Below, in pieces: positions 50,255 through 59,846 of a stretch of DNA of 64,000 bases. Made by a program: the position numbers and the translations under genes. The DNA comes from Patescibacteria group bacterium. GTDB lineage: Bacteria > Patescibacteriota > Patescibacteriia > 2-12-FULL-57-11. The notes under the pieces were generated by a model. That model did no database searches. It was not told the DNA's origin and worked only from the letters and a program-made list of their open reading frames with translations. The DNA lies in NCBI GenBank assembly GCA_004297205.1, contig SCUL01000002.1, forward strand, positions 381,418 through 445,417, written 5' to 3'. Each line of letters starts with the position of its first letter. Position 1 is the first letter of the stretch.

Positions 50255-52258
50255 CTATTTGGGTTTATCGAAGACGATCTTGCGGGTCTTCTTTTCCTCT
50301 TTATAGAAGAGCATCGAGTCCCCTTCCGCAAGGGGCGCGGAGGTCTTCACCTTCATGCCGCCTTCGGAACCCATGCGCAGCTCCGGCACTTCCTGCTTGC
50401 CGCTCTGCACCGTCTTGACCTCGCCCTTGGCGAGCGGCTCGCCGCCGCGGCGCGCCTCGAAGGAGAGCCCCTTCACGATGCGGCCGTCCTCGACGCGGCC
50501 GCCGACGATCTGCTCGTCGCGCTCGGTGCGGAAGATCTTCAGGATCAAGAGCCGGCCGAAGTCGGTGCGGACGACCTCCGGGGTCAGCATGCCCTCGAGC
50601 TGGGCGGTCAGGTCGTTGAACAGGTCGTAGATGATCTTGTAGGTCTTCACGGAAACGCCCTTCTCGCGGGCGAGTTCGGCCACCGGCGGCGGCACGAGCA
50701 CGCTGAAGCCGACGACATGGGCGCCCGTCGCTTCGGCGCGCAGCACGTCCGCCTCCGTGATGTTGCCGAGGCCCTTGGAGACGACGTTCAGCCCCACCTC
50801 GGGATGCGAGAACTTTTCGAAGGACACGAGGATCGCCTCGAGCGAGCCGAGCACGTCGGCCTTGATGATGAGCGGCACGAGCTTCTTTTCCTCCGCCTCT
50901 TCCTGAGACGCCTTCTCGACCGTGGCGATCTTCTCGCCGGTGGCGCGCAGCTCGCGCACCCGCTCCAGCTTCTTCCCCGCCTCCGGCACTTCGACGACGT
51001 CACCGACCTGCGGCGCCACGCGGAAGCCGAGGATGCGGACCGGCGTTCCCGGCGGCGCCGAGTCGACGTTCTCGCCGCGGTAGTTCTTCATGGCGCGGAC
51101 CTTGCCGTACGAGTCGCTGCCGATGGCCAGTTCTTCGTTGCGCTTGAGGGTGCCGTTCTGGACGAGCAGCGTGGCCACGACGCCTTCGCCGGGGTTGACG
51201 TGCGACTCGATGACCGTGCCCTGGGCGCGGCGGTTGGGGTTGGCCCGGATCTCGTCGGCTTTGACGTCGGCGACGAGCAGGATCAGTTCCAGAAGTTTGT
51301 CGATGTTCAATCCAGTCTTCGCGGAAATCGGCTGCATCGGAATGTTGCCGCCCCACTCCTCCGGCAGCACGTTCAATTCGGAAAGTTCGCGCTTGACGCG
51401 CTCCGGGTCGGCCTCCGGTTTGTCGACCTTGTTGATGGCCACGACGAACGGGAGTTTGGCCGCTTCGATGATCTTGATGGCTTCCTTGGTCTGCGGCTGG
51501 ACGCCGTCGTCGGCGGCGACGACGAGAATGGCGATGTCGGCGATCTTGGCGCCGCGGGAGCGCATGGCCGTGAACGCTTCGTGGCCCGGCGTGTCGATGA
51601 AGGTGATGAGACGCCCGTTCTTCTGGGTCTGGTAGGCGCCGATGTGCTGGGTGATGCCGCCCGCTTCTCCGGCGGCGACGTCGGCCGAGCGGATGGTGTC
51701 GAGCAGTTTCGTTTTGCCGTGGTCGACGTGGCCCATCACGACGATGACCGGCGGACGCGCCACGAGCGAGCCCTTGGCTTCGGCGCCGACCGCTTCCTTG
51801 ATGATGTCGCCGGTCGACAAGACTTCGGCCGGCTGGTCCCCTTCGGCCAGCGGGCTCACCTGGAAGCCCAAATCCTCGGCCACGATCGAGGCCGTATCGT
51901 AGTCGACGCGCTCGTTCAAGGACGCCAGAATGCCGTTCTTCATGAATTCCTGGATGACGCGGGTCACCGGCAGGCCCAGGCGCGTGGCGAAGTCGCGCAC
52001 TGTGATGACGGGCGGGAGCTGCACCGGTCCGCGCTCCGTGGCCAGCTTCTTGAGTTCGGCGGCGGCCGCTTCCTTGGCGGCGGCGCGCTTCTTCTCCAGC
52101 AGCTGGGCGATCTGCGGCCAGGACTCCATGACCTTCTTGGCGGTGCGGTCGTCGATCTTGATGGCGCGCCGTCCCACGTCGAAGCCGGCGTCGGGCAGAA
52201 TGCCGCGCAGGTCCTCGGGCGTGACGCGCAATTTGCGGGCCAGTTCGGTGACGTTCAT
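50255..52258 (-). CDS. infB: Translation initiation factor IF-2 (short form)
   Basis: 667 aa. G-domain ([17 protein letters not shown]) and the C-terminal beta-barrel domains. Confidence 0.95.
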
Positions 52259-52270
52259 GCGTGGGCCACT

Positions 52271-53344
52271 CTACCCGCGCAGACGAGTAACGTCAACGTG
52301 CCGCTCCCAGACCTTATGTCGTAGGGTCCGGGACAAGAATTGGGCATCGGCGTGGACGCACAATCCCATATAAGAACTGAGGTTTTCGATGGTGGCGCGG
52401 CGCAGCATCCGTTTCGCCGTTTTCGTCCGAAGCACCGTCGCGTGCGGCAAAAGCACGTATCCGACGAAGTCGATGCCTTGCGTCCATGTGCGGACGACGA
52501 CCTTCCCGGGATGCAAGGTGAGCTTCAATCGTTCGGATAGGAAGCTGTTGATGCGCGTCGCCTTTGCCTGCGCATCCGCTGGGGATGCCGCGAGAGACAC
52601 GAAGTCGTCGCAGTAGCGCAGGTAGTGGCGGAGTCGGAGCTCGTGTTTCACGAAGCGGTCGAGTTCGTGGAGGTAGACGTTGGCGAACAGCTGCGACGTG
52701 AGATTGCCGAGCGGAATCCCTTTTCCGGGAGCATCCGAAAAACTGCCGATGATGTTCCCGAGAAGTCGAAGGATGCGCTCGTCGCCGATCCGCAGACGCA
52801 GCAAGTCTGCAAGAATGCCGTGGTCGACGGACGCAAAGAACTTCCGGATGTCGCACGTGAGGGCGTAGACGGTCCGCGTATTGTTGAAACTGGCTTGCCG
52901 GAGAAATGTACGCAACCGAGCTACGGCGGCGTGCGTCCCCTTTCCGACACGGCAGGAGTAACTGTCAAAGATGAAACGCGGCTCAAAAAGCGGATCGATC
53001 ACGTTCATGGCCGCCTGGTGCACGACGCGGTCGCGGACGTTCGCCTTGTGGATCGAGCGCTGCTTGGGGTCGAAGACGGTGAACGGATGATACGGACCGT
53101 GCGTGAAACGGCCGTTCGCGAGATCGTCGTGCAACAAAAAGAGATTGTCCTCAAGGTGCCGCTCGAATACCATGACGTCATGGCGAGAGCGTTTGCCTTT
53201 CCGGAACCGTTCCCAGGCAAGGAACAGATTCTCAAGCGAGCACAGCCGCTCAAACAATCCTTGTTCTCCATGAGTTACCCCCCCCCGACGCAAATTTGAA
53301 CCGCAGAACCAGTTGCCGGGCGGCCCGACGGACATTCCGATCAT
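52271..53344 (-). CDS. DGR reverse transcriptase
   Basis: 357-aa ORF with RT motifs 1-7. Motif 4 reads GIPLGNLTSQLFANVYL: the [IL]GxxxSQ signature of DGR RTs, in place of the QGxxxSP found in group II intron RTs. The catalytic YCDD and FFASVDH motifs are present. N-terminal LFERLCSLENLFLAWERFRKGKR is typical of DGR RTs. The exact start is uncertain because the most upstream start overlaps avd on the opposite strand. Confidence 0.9.
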   Translation of the reverse strand: MIGMSVGPPGNWFCGSNLRRGGVTHGEQGLFERLCSLENLFLAWERFRKGKRSRHDVMVFERHLEDNLFLLHDDLANGRFTHGPYHPFTVFDPKQRSIHKANVRDRVVHQAAMNVIDPLFEPRFIFDSYSCRVGKGTHAAVARLRTFLRQASFNNTRTVYALTCDIRKFFASVDHGILADLLRLRIGDERILRLLGNIIGSFSDAPGKGIPLGNLTSQLFANVYLHELDRFVKHELRLRHYLRYCDDFVSLAASPADAQAKATRINSFLSERLKLTLHPGKVVVRTWTQGIDFVGYVLLPHATVLRTKTAKRMLRRATIENLSSYMGLCVHADAQFLSRTLRHKVWERHVDVTRLRG

Positions 53345-53666
53345 CCATACACTCTACGACGCTTATACGGCGTGGCATCATCTCCTGTTGAAGTTTCCCA
53401 AGTCGCAACGCTACACCCTCGGTGAGACCTGTGACCGGCAGCTATTGCAGACGCTCGAGCTGGTCCTCGGTGCGGCATCCGTCCGAGAGCCGGACACGAA
53501 GCTGGATCGTCTGCGCGAAGCAAGCGCAAAAGTCGACATCCTCAAGCTGCTGATCCGCTTGTCGAAGGATTGTTCTTGCACCTCCAACCAACAATACCTC
53601 GACATGCAATCCCGGCTCCAGGAGGTCGGCAAGATGCTCGGCGGTTGGATGAAATCCATTTTCTGA
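53313..53666 (+). CDS. avd: DGR accessory variability determinant (Avd; four-helix-bundle family)
   Basis: 117 aa. Contains FPKSQRYTLGETCDRQLLQTLELVLGA and C-terminal QEVGKMLGGWMKS, which closely parallels the Bordetella-phage bAvd QVETAQVLIAEVGRILGSWIARV. It is on the strand opposite to the RT, TR and target gene. The apparent start is TTG. Confidence 0.8.
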   Translation: MPGGPTDIPIIHTLYDAYTAWHHLLLKFPKSQRYTLGETCDRQLLQTLELVLGAASVREPDTKLDRLREASAKVDILKLLIRLSKDCSCTSNQQYLDMQSRLQEVGKMLGGWMKSIF

Positions 53667-53704
53667 ATCAAAGGCCCGGCCGAAGCCGGGCCTTTGCTAC
53701 GAGA

Positions 53705-53840
53705 ACTCCCGCAGGGCGGGAACCGAGTAGTTCGAGTTGTCGTTGCTGTGCCAGTTGGCGTTCAACTTCACCTGCTCGTTGTCGGAGTTGAAGTTGACGT
53801 ACGGCACGTTCTGCCAATCCACCTCGTCCTTATCGGGAAC
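53705..53840 (-). repeat. DGR template repeat (TR), 136 bp
   Basis: Identical to the VR at 121/136 positions. All 15 differences are adenines in the TR (minus sense). In its reading frame the TR is dense in AAC (Asn) codons (NFNSDNEQVKLNANWHSNDNSNY). Embedded in an 81-codon remnant ORF (53697..53942). Confidence 0.93.
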
Positions 53841-54115
53841 CGTCCAAAAGTACGTCCGTGCCTTCCAGACCACCGGACACGGACGCATCCATGTCCTGTA
53901 TTTTATGCGGAATCCAATGGGTTGATCCCCGATTCCAAGCACAGACGCGGAGTACTCATCGGCCGCGGCGCACGCTCCGACGATTCATCGACCGTCGGAC
54001 TCTGGCGTCATATGCGGCGATAAGGGATTTCGGCGACCGACGTCCCTGCCTGCAGGCAGGCGGGCGTGAACGACGATACATGAGCCTAGTCTCCATGCCG
54101 ATCATAACAAAAAAA

Positions 54116-54180
54116 GAACGGGGCTCCCACACGCCAAGGTCCGAAGACCAAGTTGTGTGAAAGCCCCAAGGGACCAAGTA
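54116..54180 (-). terminator. Compound hairpin + U-tract immediately downstream of VR/target gene
   Basis: In minus sense: an outer stem GGGGCUUUCACAC/GUGUGGGAGCCCC encloses the GGUC-UUCG-GACC tetraloop hairpin, followed by guucuuuuuuu. This is the position where DGRs carry the target-recognition hairpin. Confidence 0.6.
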
Positions 54181-54190
54181 TCAAGTCCCT

Positions 54191-55039
54191 TCACTCCCGC
54201 AGGGCGGGAACCGAGTAGTTCGAGCTGCCGTTGCTGTGCCAGTCGGCGCTCAACAACACCCGCTCGCGGCCGGAGTCGAAGCTGACGTACGGCACGTCCT
54301 GCCAATCCACCTCGTCCTCAGCGGGAACGTTGATCTCGTACCCGGCCGCGAACATGCCGGGGACCTCGTCGTAGTCGATGGCCCGGACGATCTCCGGGAA
54401 CATCCACGCGACGACGAGCATCTCGTCGGCCGGCGACGACTTCTTGCTCCGGACGCGCTCGATGCTCGGCCGCTTGCGGTGGGCGTCGAGGTCGAGCACG
54501 ACCCACTCGACGACGGGCTTGTGCGAGTCGTTGCCCGCGAGGAGCCGGAGGCGCTCGACGGGATCGCTCCCGAAGCGCTTCTGGAGCTTCGCGTCGTTGC
54601 CCGTGTAGGGCGACGGGGCGGAGCGCAGATGCTCCCAGCGCCAGAACTTCGCGCTGGTGAAGACGCGCCGGATCTCGCTAGCGTGGGCCTCGAAGGTCTT
54701 TTGGACCCCCGGGGTTCCCTCGCCGATGCGGATTCGGAGCGAGCGCACGCAGAGGGCTCCCTCTGGCCACTCGGGCGCGCTCTGGGCGAGCTTCTCGAAG
54801 ACCTCGTCTCCGAAGCCCCAGCCGCCCGCCTCGCTCGCCGCCTTGAAGCGGCTGAGCTGCTCGTCGACCGAGAGGATGAAGGCGTTGACCTCCGGCGCCT
54901 CGAGCGTCTCGCGCATCTTCGCGGCGAGACGCGGGTCGCCATTCACCCGGCGGATCAGCTCGGCGCTGAACCCCGCCTTGTGGATGACCCGCTTGAACTC
55001 ATCGAACTCACCGACTCCCAGATCGAAAAGGCTGGCCAT
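54191..55039 (-). CDS. DGR target protein (variable protein), cytoplasmic, unknown fold
   Basis: ORF 54191..55150 trimmed to MASLFDLG..., preceded by AGGAGGG (282 aa). No signal peptide or TM segment. The C-terminal 45 aa are encoded by the VR. The C-type lectin/FGE-type RGGSW...GFR pattern is absent. Confidence 0.75.
   Translation of the reverse strand: MASLFDLGVGEFDEFKRVIHKAGFSAELIRRVNGDPRLAAKMRETLEAPEVNAFILSVDEQLSRFKAASEAGGWGFGDEVFEKLAQSAPEWPEGALCVRSLRIRIGEGTPGVQKTFEAHASEIRRVFTSAKFWRWEHLRSAPSPYTGNDAKLQKRFGSDPVERLRLLAGNDSHKPVVEWVVLDLDAHRKRPSIERVRSKKSSPADEMLVVAWMFPEIVRAIDYDEVPGMFAAGYEINVPAEDEVDWQDVPYVSFDSGRERVLLSADWHSNGSSNYSVPALRE
54193..54328 (-). repeat. DGR variable repeat (VR), 136 bp, at 3' end of target gene
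   Basis: See the TR entry. It encodes ...VPAEDEVDWQDVPYVSFDSGRERVLLSADWHSNGSSNYSVPALRE-stop. The 3'-terminal ~20 nt (ggttcccgccctgcgggag) are identical in TR and VR, making them a candidate IMH. Confidence 0.93.
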
Positions 55040-55191
55040 GTGGCACACCCTCCTATGCCGCTCGGCTGACCGCATCCGGGAACCGCCCCGGAATTGGCTC
55101 ACCTCCAAAAAGCGACGATGAAACATATCATAAAAATCTGTGATTGTCAAGCATCGAAAGGCGATCCTAAAGGTGCTATGCTATCTGCCCC

Positions 55192-55929
55192 ATGCAGGCT
55201 GCTCCCTCCGGATTCCTGGCCATCGACAAGCCCGCGGACTGGACGTCGCACGACGTCGTGGCCAAGCTCCGACGCATCACCGGCGTGAAGACGATCGGAC
55301 ACGCCGGCACGCTCGACCCCTTCGCCACGGGGCTGCTCATCGTCGGCGTCGGACGCGCGGCCACCAAGCGCCTCTCCGAGTTCCAAAAACAGGAAAAAGA
55401 ATACCTGGCCACGGCCCGCTTCGACGGGTCGAGCGACACGGATGACGTCACAGGAACCGTCACGCTGGCCGCGGGTGACGCGGAGCCAGGGCTCCCGACG
55501 GCGCGCAGCGAAGCGAGCACCGGCGGGATGGCTGAGCGGCAGGACCCGCGGCCGCGTGTCATCGAGGCATTCGCAGCGGAGGTCGGCACGCGGATGCAGA
55601 CGCCGCCTGCCTACTCGGCAAAAAAGATCGGCGGCAAAAAGATGTACGACTTGGCGCGCGCCGGAACCCCGGTCGAAGCCAAGCCTGCCGAGATCACCAT
55701 CCGCGACATCACGGTCACACGCGTCGCCTGGCCGGAGGTGGACTTCCGGATCGTCTGTTCGACGGGCACCTACGTACGCGCCGTGGCCCGGGATGTCGGC
55801 AAACGCCTCGGTGCCGGCGGCTACCTGACCGCCTTGCGCCGCACACGGAGCGGCGACAAAAACGTTTCGGATGCAGTGCCTCTTGAACAGCTCGCGCCCG
55901 GCACGTGGAAAACCTATCTATGGAAATAA
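55192..55929 (+). CDS. truB: tRNA pseudouridine(55) synthase TruB
   Basis: 245 aa. Contains [22 protein letters not shown]...[14 protein letters not shown] (catalytic Asp). Confidence 0.93.
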
Positions 55930-56073: not shown

Positions 56074-58176
56074 TCAGTCGTTATCTTCCGACGTGGTGAC
56101 CGCGGCCGGGGAAGACTCCGGCTGCGAAGGCTGGTTGCGCTCACTGAGACGACGCTCGGTCGCCGCGGCTCTCGCCTCCAGCTTGAGCTCCTCGATCCGC
56201 TGGTAGACCGGCGCGATGAGCCGCTTGACGCGGATCCGCTTCTCCTGCAGGAGACGCTCCGTGATCTCGGCGCTGGCCTTCATGCCGATCTCGATGGCCT
56301 CGATGAGGATGCGGACCGGCATGGTCCAGAGCGGCATCTCCTGGTTCGTCTTGAAGTAGTTTCCGTAGACCGTCCGGAACTCCGGCAGGTAGTCGACGGC
56401 GACCACGTCGCGGGTGCCCGGGAGCTGCGCCCTCATGTTGCGCGCCTCGGTGCCGGGATCGTCGATCTGAGCCGCGCCCTGCTGGTCGAGCCAGCGGGCG
56501 TGGCGGCGGCGGATGGCGGAAGCGACCCGGGTGAGGTCGATGCCGTTGCCCGCGAGCGTGAAGTGGTAGCTCACGATCTTGCCGTCCGGACCGCGCGTCA
56601 CGTCGCGCAGCTGGAGCGAGATCATCGCCGCCGCGTACTTATACGACGCCTCACGCGCGATGTGGTAGGACACCGCAGGACCCTTCAGGGCGCGGGCCAG
56701 CGCGAGCTGCTGCTTCCTGCTGTGGTGGGTGCGGCAGCACGGGCCGAAGCTGTTGCTGTTGCTCTCACCGATCACGAGATGGACCTTGCCGAGGAAGCCG
56801 TGGAACGGCCACCCGGCGATCGACATCTCCTGCTTGGCGAAGACGAAGGGCTTGCCGTCGTTCAACGGCCGCACCTCCGCCTTCTCCCAGTCGGCGTTGG
56901 CCTGTTCCCAGGCCGCCTGGCGCGCCGCCCGGGCCTCCTTCTCGATCTCTCTGAAGCGATCGTGGAAGGCCGTGATGCGGCTGCCGCGCTCACGCGCGTT
57001 CTGGAGGCTGGTGACGAGCAGCTGCTGCTCCTCGCCCGCCGTCATCGGCGTGCCGCTCTTGGTGGCCTCCTTCAGCAGGTAACGCACCTCGGCCGTGGCT
57101 TCCGCCTGGAGGTCCGCGTCGGTCGGGGCGCGCAGGTTGGCCAGGATCGTCTCCATGGTCAGGACCTGCTTGCGCACCGCGCGGAAGCTCTGGATGATGC
57201 TCGCGTCGTCCTGCTCGATCTCGTCCTGCTTGGCGAGCAGGAAGGCCTCCGCCGCGTCGAACGCGACGAAGAGGTAGTCGAGGATCTCCTCGGAACTCAG
57301 ACCGAGTTCGAGAAGACCATTCAGGAAGTCACGGATGTTGTACCCCTCCGCCACGCGCTCTCCGGTCAGGTCGTTATTGATGACCATCTCGAAGAGCGGC
57401 ACGAGGTGGATGAGGGCCGGGATGTACTCGATCACCGAAGTGATGAGCAGGTGGAGGGAGGACACGGTGTTGCGTCCCTTGTTCTCCTCCCGGCCGTGCT
57501 GGTCGAGGAGCCCGCCGCCTCCGCCGCAATCGACGAAGAGGTGTCCGTGGTCCTCGAGATGCCTGGCCGTCAGGAACGGCTTCGGCACGCTCTGAAGCGA
57601 GGCCGGTGCCGCCTCCGCGGTGAGCTCGCCGCTCTTCACGCACTCGATGTGGACATCGGGCGCGATGTTGAAGCGGCTGCGCAGCTCGGGCTTCCGGACG
57701 AGGAGCCAGGCCATGCAGGCCGCCTCCACGTCGATGTTGGTGTGGGGATGGAGCACCCCGATCTGCTTGACAGGCCTGTAGAAGCCCGCCCGCTGTTCGA
57801 CCATCCACTCGACATCCTTGCGGAAGACCTTGGCCATGGCCGCGATCATCTCCTGCTCGGACCGGTCGTGGATGTGGATCTCGCGCAGCAGTGCGCGCTC
57901 CTTTCCGAGCGGATCCTCCAGCTCTGCTTCGGCCTGCGCCCGCTCGTCCTCAAGCTCAGCGCTCCGCACCCGCTTGGCCTTGGACGGGCCGAACATGGCG
58001 ACCGTGATGCGGTGAGCGATACGCTCGATCGGATCGAGCGGCTTGCGGGCCGCCGGATTCTTCACCGGCGCGGCCGTCTCCGTCACCTCCGCCGTCTCCG
58101 GCGGCTGTGCCGGGACGGGCTGGATGTGGACGGACTTCGCATTCTGCGTCGTGAGACGCTCGACAAGTGCCTTCAT
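56074..58176 (-). CDS. Large hypothetical protein (700 aa), no confident family
   Basis: ORF 56074..58281 trimmed to MKALVERL..., preceded by a strong AAGGAGGAG SD. Possible weak DHH-like features (HPHTNIDVEAA...; VDCGGGGGLLDQHG), not convincing. The C-terminus is acidic. Confidence 0.5.
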   Translation of the reverse strand: MKALVERLTTQNAKSVHIQPVPAQPPETAEVTETAAPVKNPAARKPLDPIERIAHRITVAMFGPSKAKRVRSAELEDERAQAEAELEDPLGKERALLREIHIHDRSEQEMIAAMAKVFRKDVEWMVEQRAGFYRPVKQIGVLHPHTNIDVEAACMAWLLVRKPELRSRFNIAPDVHIECVKSGELTAEAAPASLQSVPKPFLTARHLEDHGHLFVDCGGGGGLLDQHGREENKGRNTVSSLHLLITSVIEYIPALIHLVPLFEMVINNDLTGERVAEGYNIRDFLNGLLELGLSSEEILDYLFVAFDAAEAFLLAKQDEIEQDDASIIQSFRAVRKQVLTMETILANLRAPTDADLQAEATAEVRYLLKEATKSGTPMTAGEEQQLLVTSLQNARERGSRITAFHDRFREIEKEARAARQAAWEQANADWEKAEVRPLNDGKPFVFAKQEMSIAGWPFHGFLGKVHLVIGESNSNSFGPCCRTHHSRKQQLALARALKGPAVSYHIAREASYKYAAAMISLQLRDVTRGPDGKIVSYHFTLAGNGIDLTRVASAIRRRHARWLDQQGAAQIDDPGTEARNMRAQLPGTRDVVAVDYLPEFRTVYGNYFKTNQEMPLWTMPVRILIEAIEIGMKASAEITERLLQEKRIRVKRLIAPVYQRIEELKLEARAAATERRLSERNQPSQPESSPAAVTTSEDND

Positions 58177-58253
58177 GGGACACTCCTCCTTGCTCCTTGC
58201 GGAGCGCATGGCCTTTCGGCCCAGATCACTCAAACACAGGCCCCATCCACCAT

Positions 58254-58306
58254 GGCGGGCCACGAACCCTGGAAACCGCAAAGATTCCCACGGTTCGTGA
58301 CCCGCC
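58254..58306 (-). promoter_or_regulatory. Long hairpin in the 5' UTR of the 700-aa gene
   Basis: In minus sense: GGCGGGUCACGAACC-(23 nt)-GGUUCGUGGCCCGCC, a 15-bp stem with one G-U pair. Flanked by two further small hairpins (CCUUGA-AAAU-UCAAGG; GGCC-GAAA-GGCC) in a ~200-nt leader. Confidence 0.5.
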
Positions 58307-58452: not shown

Positions 58453-59612
58453 TCACCACTCCTCCGCCGCGGGGGCGAAGGAAGCGATGAGCATCTCCAC
58501 GATCTTCGCGGGGTCGATGGCGACCGCCGGGAGATGGGGGTTGGCGAGCATCTTGTTGCCCGCCGTGAGGTCGTCGCGCCAGAAGTCGATCGGGGTCCCG
58601 AAGGGCCGACCGTGCTGCTCGAGCGCGTCTTCCTCTTCTTCGGTCGGCGGCCGGCCGAGCGCGGCGCGCCGCCAGGCGGCAACGGCCGCGTGCAGCGTGA
58701 TACCGCTGTTTTTGTCGGCCCGGCAGAAGAACCCGCCGTCCTCGAGCCGCAGCACCACGTTCGGCGCCTCGGTGTCGAAGAGCCAGTCCGCCAGATACGG
58801 CGAGGTGCTGTGGCAGACCGCCACGCGGATCGTCCCCTGCGGCGTGGCCGCCGGGATGATCCGTCCGAAGCCGACCAGCCAGTCGCGGGCCGCCGCCCGG
58901 CGCCCCATGTCGAGGTGCTGGCCGGCGTGCTCGAGGATGCACTCGTGCAGCCAGGGCGTGCCGGGCTGACGGCTCCAGGACCGGAGCCACGGGACGTTCA
59001 TGTCCCGCGGCGCGACGTTTCCGGCGCGGAACCGGCCGAGCGCGGCGCGCGCCAGGAAGCGGCAAGCCGCTTCCGCCTCGGCCGCGGGATAGACCCCGGC
59101 CTCGGCCAGCACCCACAGCGCCTGCACGGTCTCCGAGAGCGTCCCGGGGAACGTGCCGAACAGCGGGTCGCGCGCCGTCGGATCGCCGGCCAGGAGCTTC
59201 GGGAGCTCCGTGAGTCCGGCATAGTCCGGCGACGCCAGAAGCGTCTTCGGATCAAGGCCGCCCTCCCCGGGACAGACGCCGACGAGAATGGCGCGCTGGC
59301 GCTCCTCGTAGGCGACCGGCGCCAGGGTCCCCGCCTCGGGGATGTCCTTGCGCCACTCGGGTCCGACTGCCGCCCGCCGAATCCGGGCATCGGCCGCAAC
59401 GTGCGCGGCCAGGTCCGGATGGGTCGTGAGCACTTCGGCCGCGACCCAGCCCATGATGCCGCTGCGCGGAATCACGATCTCGGTCTTCTTCACGGTCGGT
59501 GCCTCGGCAGACACCGGCGCGGCCGCTGCGGCCGCCGTATCCACCACCCTGCGACGGGTCAATTGAGCCTCCGTCTTCCGGGGGAATATGGTCCCGGAAA
59601 GACCGCGCAACA
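58453..59612 (-). CDS. Hypothetical protein (uncharacterised)
   Basis: Long ORF 58453..59739. The start is uncertain; a candidate Met is near 59612 (MLRGLSG...), and the start coordinate is approximate to within 1 nt. No family recognised. Confidence 0.35.
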
Positions 59613-59846
59613 TACCACAATTCTTGCCCCAGGTCAACCCCCGTGCTAGAGTCGCGTCAGAAGTCTTGACCCGTCGAAACGGCAGCCTTCCGCGCCTGTT
59701 GTGCCTGTTGCCGACCACTTCGCCATGAGGATCGCTCACGCATTGCTTCTTTCTTTTCCCCGTCCGCCCCGCTGAGCGGGGCCGCTTTGCGTTACGTCTC
59801 CCGGCGTTTCCGGCAGCGGGTCTGGGCGCGGTCTGCCCTGACCCCT

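Follow-up and report, generated by a model that had tools for sequence, protein, structure and literature searches.

The 64,000-nucleotide window analysed here (the whole stretch of DNA from contig SCUL01000002.1 of a Patescibacteria group bacterium, positions 381,418 to 445,417) contains a cassette that is very probably a complete chromosomal diversity-generating retroelement (DGR) of the type known in the candidate phyla radiation (CPR), with its parts in the B3 order. The cassette fills a 2.9-kb gap between the divergent genes infB and truB, lying upstream of both, and consists of a target gene ending in a variable repeat (VR), a structured leader, a template repeat (TR), an avd gene on the opposite strand, and a gene for a reverse transcriptase (RT). 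A preliminary description of this DNA had proposed a DGR in which none of the parts (RT, Avd, TR, VR and target) is missing, and every test that we ran upheld this proposal.

The two repeats were recovered by an independent repeat search of the window, with exactly the coordinates and the number of matching positions given in the preliminary description. The TR covers 136 nt (53705–53840, minus strand), and the VR (54193–54328, minus strand) makes up the final 45 codons of the target gene; they are identical at 121 of 136 positions (89%). We ran the pairwise alignment with a mismatch tally that had been suggested earlier, and all 15 mismatches fell at adenines of the TR (11 A to G, two A to C and two A to T, read on the minus strand), with no difference at any other base over the 136 nt. 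The restriction to template adenines claimed before is thus confirmed. With 36 adenines among the 136 positions, the chance of placing 15 out of 15 mismatches on them is 1.6e-10 (hypergeometric). The TR shares its reading frame with the target gene and holds nine AAC codons; each of its 36 adenines lies at codon position 1 or 2 and none at position 3, and the same codon positions take up all 15 changes from TR to VR. The homology breaks off sharply on both sides of the repeats, and no second TR-like copy was found in the window.

The RT gene (52271–53257, minus strand) codes for a protein of 328 aa starting from a TTG codon at 53257. Its open reading frame (ORF) stays open back to an ATG at 53344 (52271–53344, minus strand). 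Because an identical database protein of 328 aa (P0075, 100% identity) begins at the TTG, which is preceded by GGAG, we took TTG 53257 as the true start, and on these sequence features it is probably the correct one rather than ATG 53344. The only Pfam domain of the protein is RVT_1 (5e-17), and its C-terminal 30 residues or so are without a Pfam match. The motif LGNLTSQ at residues 183–189 (52691–52711) fits the pattern [IL]GxxxSQ, and YCDD is found at residues 215–218 (52604–52615); the catalytic aspartate D136 is present in the alignment to the protein chain 8ub7_A. This chain, a 328-aa "reverse transcriptase" with IGSLTSQLFANVY and YMDD aligned, is the top match among solved structures (6.4e-49). 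We take it to be the bRT of Bordetella phage BPP-1, judging by its aligned sequence and by its fit to the preprint on the bRT-Avd structure obtained by cryo-electron microscopy (cryo-EM). Among the PDB chains, RTs of group II introns (5.9e-20 at best) and of the retron type (about 3e-15 at best) follow far behind. The RT also matches PHROG 1423 (6.5e-109). Its top-scoring NCBIfam model was group_II_RT_mat (TIGR04416), with 128.9 bits against a cut-off of 300 bits; the retron RT model reached 36.9 against a cut-off of 235, a weak Drt match stayed far under its cut-off, and no DGR-RT model was among the NCBIfam matches. A search of the window with Rfam gave no group II intron RNA family at the gathering threshold and no match to a retron msr/msd RNA family. 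By its motifs and match scores, the RT is assigned to the DGR type and not to the group II or retron types, in agreement with what the preliminary description had expected of it.

The avd gene (53313–53666, plus strand) codes for 117 aa and is identified by a Pfam bAvd match of 62.3 bits (cut-off 40) and by a match to the PHROG "Avd protein of DGR" (1.1e-19); a phmmer search of the PDB with Avd gave chance matches only. The presence of an Avd homologue beside the RT had been recognised before, but its orientation had been overlooked: avd is encoded on the strand opposite to RT, TR, VR and target, so that it diverges from the RT gene across a gap of 55 bp (53258–53312) and converges with the TR.

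We gathered related loci via homologues of the RT and of the target and compared 85 of them. The avd gene lies directly upstream of the RT gene on the opposite strand in about 68 of these loci, and about 30 of the 85 contain a homologue of the same target family upstream. TR/VR pairs with mismatches mostly at TR adenines were found at 41 related loci, and in most of these all mismatches are of this kind. The order TR-(avd)-RT, avd being encoded on the reverse strand, has been described as architecture B3, which accounts for 90% of a CPR set (Wu et al. 2018, PMC5758913), and "DGR clade 2" as restricted to CPR/Patescibacteria, cellular, and acting on targets without recognisable domains (Roux et al. 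2021, PMC8144416). Because both the B3 architecture and the descriptions of the Patescibacteria-restricted clade match, we classified the element as a standard CPR DGR. It shares with the CPR B3 DGRs the order and strands of its parts, namely a target gene with a C-terminal VR, a TR, a reverse-strand avd and an RT gene, as well as a cellular host belonging to the Patescibacteria and a target without a recognisable domain or transmembrane segment. For the VR region of CPR DGRs, a divergent C-type-lectin fold has been proposed, and the same may hold here. Nothing essential differs from the other members; the feature of its own is its position in the divergent truB/infB gap.

The target gene (54191–55039, minus strand) codes for 282 aa, with the VR forming the C-terminal end, and its product is identical to the NCBI entry "hypothetical protein EPO33_03495" of a Patescibacteria group bacterium. 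It gave no match in Pfam, NCBIfam or PHROGs, and neither a signal peptide nor a hydrophobic N-terminus was found; the protein is apparently cytoplasmic. The predicted fold of its body bears a remote resemblance to C-type lectins, and neither a Foldseek search of the PDB with the model (no significant match) nor a search of the PDB sequences with the family profile identified a relative. The target family comprises at least 74 proteins of about 265–290 aa, which come mainly from Candidatus Uhrbacteria. When 74 homologues were compared, the codons with a templating adenine at position 1 or 2 showed a mean entropy of 2.54 bits, compared to 1.17 bits for the other VR codons and 1.18 bits for the rest of the protein (P = 2e-6), and the residues seen where the template has AAC are those that NNC codons can encode. 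Because the variability concentrates at adenine-templated codons throughout the homologues, the whole family looks DGR-diversified. A promoter-like site for the target gene (55122–55150, minus strand; TTGACA-17-TATGTT with TG, identified by consensus match only) is situated in the gap of 152 bp to the divergent truB.

Three members of the target family were found in other surroundings. The closest homologue of the target (64% identical), at locus L081 (8001–9305), is followed by an RT fragment only (corresponding to residues 225–316, 63% identical), with no match to a TR, avd or leader RNA beside it; this looks like a decayed DGR which left a frozen target gene behind. At L083 (8001–8870) and L084 (8001–8858), genes of the target family stand alone, with no RT, TR or leader within 8 kb; their neighbours are glycosyltransferase genes in L083 and a ribosomal protein/secY cluster, recO and aspS in L084. 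These targets are either orphaned or diversified in trans by a DGR that lies in another part of the genome.

The stretch between the target gene and the TR was folded with RNAalifold and modelled by covariance, which revealed a structured leader of the DGR RNA (53841–54094, minus strand). All its helices lie on the minus strand: H1 (54068–54086/54032–54045), H2 (53994–53999/53976–53981), the 11-bp helix H3 (53938–53948/53852–53862), H4 (53931–53937/53908–53914), and H5 with a UGCG loop (53888–53896/53875–53883), which is separated from H4 by an A-rich junction of the sequence GCAUAAAAUACA (53897–53907). The consensus fold of 15 loci contains 47 predicted pairs, 35 of which show compensatory changes. 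For H5, 94% of the alignment cells are paired, compared to 26–53% in slid controls, and seven of its nine pairs covary. Because G-U pairs are abundant in the leader helices, we assigned the RNA to the TR-sense strand. A covariance model built on the H3–H5 core (R1) matched 48 related loci; every match lies on the RT strand, and it ends at the TR start wherever a TR was mapped. It found exactly one site in the window, with 118 bits among the best scores, and gave no match in loci with a target homologue but without an RT. The leader does not match any Rfam family. Just upstream of it lies an extended -10-like sequence, TGnTATGAT (54101–54109, minus strand), and TGn-type -10-like boxes at the leader start can be read off the alignment in several relatives as well. 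We also considered TAAAAT at 53900–53905 as the -10 box of the TR RNA and rejected it; because covarying helices (H3, H4, PL, H2 and H1) extend further upstream, this sequence is regarded as the A-rich junction inside the RNA. The loop of H1 carries an inserted perfect 16-nt palindrome, CCTGCCTGCAGGCAGG (54045–54060, minus strand), which is missing from most relatives; an insert at the same spot is present only in L097.

The leader is linked to the far end of the TR by a long-range helix, PL, that was detected by covariation. Its 5' strand is the invariant leader motif GAUGAGUACUCC (53949–53961, minus strand), and its 3' strand (53697–53709) consists of the last 5 nt of the TR and 8 nt downstream of it. 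In a gapless alignment of 21 loci, 88.9% of the cells of PL are paired, compared to 35–51% in slid controls, and 26 cells are compensatory. A subclade with RTs of 45–49% identity retains PL in a different sequence (GACAG..UUCG with CGGA..CUGUU), again before the terminal hairpin. The leader upstream of the TR is a conserved, covarying structured RNA tied to the 3' end of the TR. As a whole, the RNA has a minimum free energy (MFE) lower than that of shuffled sequences (z = -4.05). A stop-like duplex between the segment upstream of the TR and the avd-antisense region was also searched for by RNAduplex and motif complementarity and was dismissed, as no consistent register or covariation emerged. 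The conservation in the avd-antisense region follows the codons of Avd, with variation as expected at synonymous sites.

Nine nt after the TR follows a further hairpin (hairpin 2; 53670–53695, minus strand) with an 11-bp stem and a UUCG loop, which was flagged as terminator-like; the stop codon of avd lies 4 nt beyond its far end. Comparing per-locus folds, as the alignment by MAFFT and RNAalifold was out of register at this place, we found a hairpin of different sequence at the same position in 19 of 28 loci and also in the divergent subclade. Hairpin 2 is a candidate for three functions: it may bind Avd as a stem-loop, end the DGR RNA on its 3' side, and terminate transcription of the convergent avd gene. 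In three loci (L122, L126 and L128) the TR ends 4–9 nt from the 3' end of avd, which leaves no room for a terminal hairpin, and the leader and the PL pairing are retained. In this sub-variant the hairpin after the TR seems to be dispensable or to overlap avd.

Taken together, these elements suggest the following course of events. A minus-strand non-coding RNA of about 430 nt, reaching from about 54094 to just past hairpin 2 (about 53665), would hold the structured leader, the 136-nt TR and the terminal hairpin. The RT, produced like Avd from the 55-bp divergent gap between their genes, would act with Avd in copying the TR into cDNA, misincorporating nucleotides opposite adenines. The cDNA would start near 53710 and stop near 53841–53851, and it would take the place of the VR, which makes up the final 45 codons of the target gene. 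In this way, as many as 25 codons that contain adenines might be recoded on a C-type-lectin-like surface, with the scaffold codons spared. The leader would stand in for the "spacer" RNA of the phage systems: its segment 53949–53961 would pair with the 3' boundary of the TR in a template:primer-like manner, the adjacent segment 53938–53948 would pair 11 nt upstream of the TR like a stop duplex, and 53948/53949 would be the candidate priming nucleotide. These steps are inferred from traces that are observed as such, namely the adenine-specific differences between TR and VR, the families to which the proteins belong, helices that covary, and conservation across dozens of loci.

The RNA of the Bordetella phage DGR offers a template for this proposal. 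Its primer strand (Sp47-56) pairs with the 3' region of the TR. The stop strand (Sp59-70), beginning two nt later, is held in an 11-bp duplex by the sequence immediately 5' of the TR; further along are a short stem-loop, adenosines without a pairing partner, the single-stranded "thumb ring" and an RT-binding stem-loop. Between its two partner strands, the TR forms a loop, and an 11-bp UNCG-capped stem-loop directly after the TR binds Avd (all bioRxiv 10.1101/2023.10.23.563531). The order observed in the window is the 5' strand of PL, the abutting 5' strand of the 11-bp H3, H4, the A-rich GCAUAAAAUACA, H5 and the 3' strand of H3, which is followed after 11 nt by the TR, the 3' strand of PL and hairpin 2. 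We tentatively propose, by analogy and as a possibility rather than a probability, that the priming and delimiting RNA of the CPR B3 DGRs may be a circular permutation of the phage prototype with a retron-like topology, in which only the Avd-binding hairpin would be left 3' of the TR and would double as a terminator. A shift of the spacer from the 3' to the 5' side of the TR would explain why avd is placed convergently right after the TR in the B3 architecture. Among the papers searched, to which neither the primary report on CPR DGRs nor any final cryo-EM article belonged, we found none that describes such a permuted layout.

Compared to the BPP-1 DGR (mtd-avd-TR-brt), the element shares the adenine-specific transfer from TR to VR, a homologous RT (6.4e-49, with the SQ and YxDD motifs) and Avd, as well as an 11-bp UNCG-capped hairpin after the TR, an 11-bp helix 5' of the TR, and a helix at the 3' boundary of the TR. 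It differs in having avd on the other strand and between TR and RT, no non-coding spacer 3' of the TR, and instead a structured RNA 5' of the TR, with a permuted order of elements and the extra helices H1 and H2. Moreover, it resides in a cellular host and acts on a small, apparently cytoplasmic target, whereas BPP-1 is a phage that diversifies a tail fibre. TvpA of Treponema denticola and other DGR variable proteins with a C-type-lectin fold are further representatives of the closest known systems. In retrons, the template is preceded on its 5' side by a structured RNA, and the 5' region is joined by a long-range helix to the 3' end of the template, where priming takes place. The likeness to a retron msr-msd is topological only: the RT of the window is not a retron RT, no msr/msd match is present, and the product would serve VR homing and not be kept as msDNA.

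Several points weigh against the picture drawn so far. The MFE fold of the single 435-nt RNA sequence does not reproduce PL, H3 or H5, and hairpin 2 could perhaps be merely a bidirectional terminator. The functions assigned to the parts of the leader are inferred by analogy alone, and the nucleotide used for priming is a prediction, as are the promoter and both ends of the transcript. Avd narrowly misses the cut-off of the NCBIfam equivalog DivGenRetAVD (74 vs. 80 bits). Finally, a single genome sequence records past mutagenesis only, and the protein database holds no variant VR sequences, the exact target cluster (P0001) consisting of one member.

The leader may thus be a real structured RNA and yet not a permuted phage spacer. 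It could have a regulatory role as a leader, confer stability or offer a platform for proteins to bind, with priming taking place in another way, e.g., from the avd-antisense sequence; we consider this explanation possible and likewise hold it tentatively. It would agree with the MFE fold lacking PL and H3, with helices H1 and H2 having no counterpart in the Bordetella phage DGR, and with a survey in the cryo-EM preprint which reports Avd-binding stem-loops 3' of the TR and stop duplexes between upstream and downstream sequences for CPR DGRs and makes no mention of a permutation (10.1101/2023.10.23.563531). On the other hand, the order of the elements corresponds one-to-one to that of the phage, including the looped-out TR and the 11-bp UNCG hairpin after it. 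In addition, the avd-antisense stretch shows neither extra conservation nor consistent pairing to the region from H5 to the TR, and in the B3 layout nothing is left 3' of the TR that could be a non-coding spacer.

Judging from the sequence, the element is complete and probably functional. A DGR by descent that is inactive by now, with the TR/VR differences as a fossil of past homing, is an unlikely alternative. Decay does occur in the target family, as evident from L081, which keeps only an RT fragment, and from L083 and L084 without any RT within 8 kb. In the window, by contrast, the ORFs for RT, Avd and target are intact and the catalytic motifs present, and all RNA helices are intact, with an R1 score among the best (118 bits). 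Moreover, a long-dead element would have gathered ordinary substitutions, whereas not a single non-adenine difference between TR and VR is seen over 136 nt. That part of a gene was simply duplicated and then diverged by chance beside an unrelated RT (of a retron, a group II intron or a defence system) has next to no probability and is effectively refuted already: this explanation could appeal to group_II_RT_mat as the best NCBIfam model, to the weak Drt and retron matches and to the missing DGR-RT model, but all NCBIfam matches of the RT stay far under their cut-offs (128.9 vs. 300 bits for the best), 15 of 15 mismatches would fall on adenines by chance with P = 1.6e-10, the arrangement of RT, avd, TR and VR is repeated in dozens of loci, no RNA family of group II introns or retrons was found in the window, and the RT consists of 328 aa with RVT_1 only.

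Further structures are located between the VR and the leader. A small hairpin (AAGGGAC...GTCCCTT; 54168–54191, minus strand), predicted by folding, overlaps the stop codon of the target gene. It is followed by a composite hairpin 3' of the VR (54120–54167, minus strand) with a 13-bp outer stem and a CTTGG-TC-UUCG-GA-CCTTGG core. A T-run (54109–54118) follows. The composite hairpin was flagged as terminator-like, and it is likely the terminator of the target gene. Per-locus folds revealed similar composite hairpins with differing outer-stem sequences in 13 of 17 loci, and 11 of these 13 share a Y-T/C-Y-GG...CCYYGG core around a short inner stem; in this hairpin form, the core is unique in the window. 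By analogy, the composite hairpin may also be a candidate counterpart of the hairpin/cruciform recognition element 3' of the VR in phage DGRs. Words containing CTYGG (ACTTGG, CCTTGG, CTCGG) repeat at a spacing of about 8 nt in the stretch that leads from the VR stop codon to the composite hairpin, as seen at 54168–54191 in the window and in the post-VR regions of L089, L097, L111 and others. They may represent a repeated binding motif.

The genomic position of the cassette agrees with the preliminary description in part. It does lie between infB (50255–52258, minus strand) and truB (55192–55929, plus strand), but it does not occupy the usual place of rbfA as had been claimed. In the textbook operon nusA-infB-rbfA-truB, rbfA follows 3' of infB and is co-directional with it. 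Because infB and truB are divergent here and the cassette is upstream of both, this part of the claim fails. A tblastn search of the window with an approximate E. coli RbfA sequence gave no hit at E < 1, which is a weak negative. At locus L089, where infB and truB are 54% and 48% identical to those of the window, the two genes likewise lie side by side and diverge, with a gap of 642 bp; two small ORFs in this gap are without a recorded Pfam match and have no counterpart in the window, and the DGR of this locus sits 2 kb downstream of infB. Other related cassettes adjoin several different housekeeping genes. The loci with the closest infB genes, mostly from Patescibacteria metagenome-assembled genomes, are only about 45% identical and have no truB within 10 kb, so that they are uninformative on the ancestral site. 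Flanking direct repeats as a footprint of transposition were not found; no integrase gene is evident near the cassette, and the neighbouring ORFs gave no match to phage families (PHROGs). The G+C content is 57–60% for RT, avd, leader and TR and 66–68% for the target gene, infB and truB. In base composition, the cassette core differs both from the target gene that belongs to it and from the adjoining genes.

At the other end of the cassette, the stop codon of the RT gene lies 12 nt before the ATG of infB. A promoter-like sequence, TTGACG-17-TAGAGT (52268–52296, minus strand), is found in the last RT codons; its -10 box reaches to 10 nt ahead of the infB ATG (52258), and a Shine-Dalgarno sequence could not be recognised. 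From the position of this site and the lack of a visible Shine-Dalgarno sequence, it appears that infB may be read from a near-leaderless transcript or be co-transcribed with the RT gene. ARAGORN reported an 84-nt tRNA-Ala(GGC) at 51480–51563 (plus strand), antisense to infB, for which the tRNA model of Rfam was silent at the gathering threshold; this call is probably a false positive. Near truB, two ORFs (56074–58281, 735 aa, and 58453–59739, 428 aa, both minus strand) were without a match in Pfam, NCBIfam or PHROGs.

The locus adds one example to a class of DGRs that is abundant in Patescibacteria and by itself changes little. Its value is that of a clean and complete reference copy, with intact RT and Avd, TR/VR differences at adenines only, and all RNA helices present. 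The 282-aa lectin-like family, which is widespread in Uhrbacteria, stands out as a dedicated DGR target, some members of which are now without a DGR. To our knowledge, the mechanism of the CPR DGR lineage has never been studied biochemically. The comparison with about 50 relatives shows that the "intergenic" stretch upstream of the TR is a conserved structured RNA, and this comparative RNA result is the part worth following up. The proposal of a permuted spacer yields a concrete RNA map which is testable by mutation (PL, H3 and the candidate priming nucleotide). If it were true, the DGR ribonucleoprotein would tolerate circular permutation, the odd gene order of the CPR elements would be explained, and an RNA of about 430 nt with two small proteins would offer a compact design for engineering DGR-based mutagenesis.

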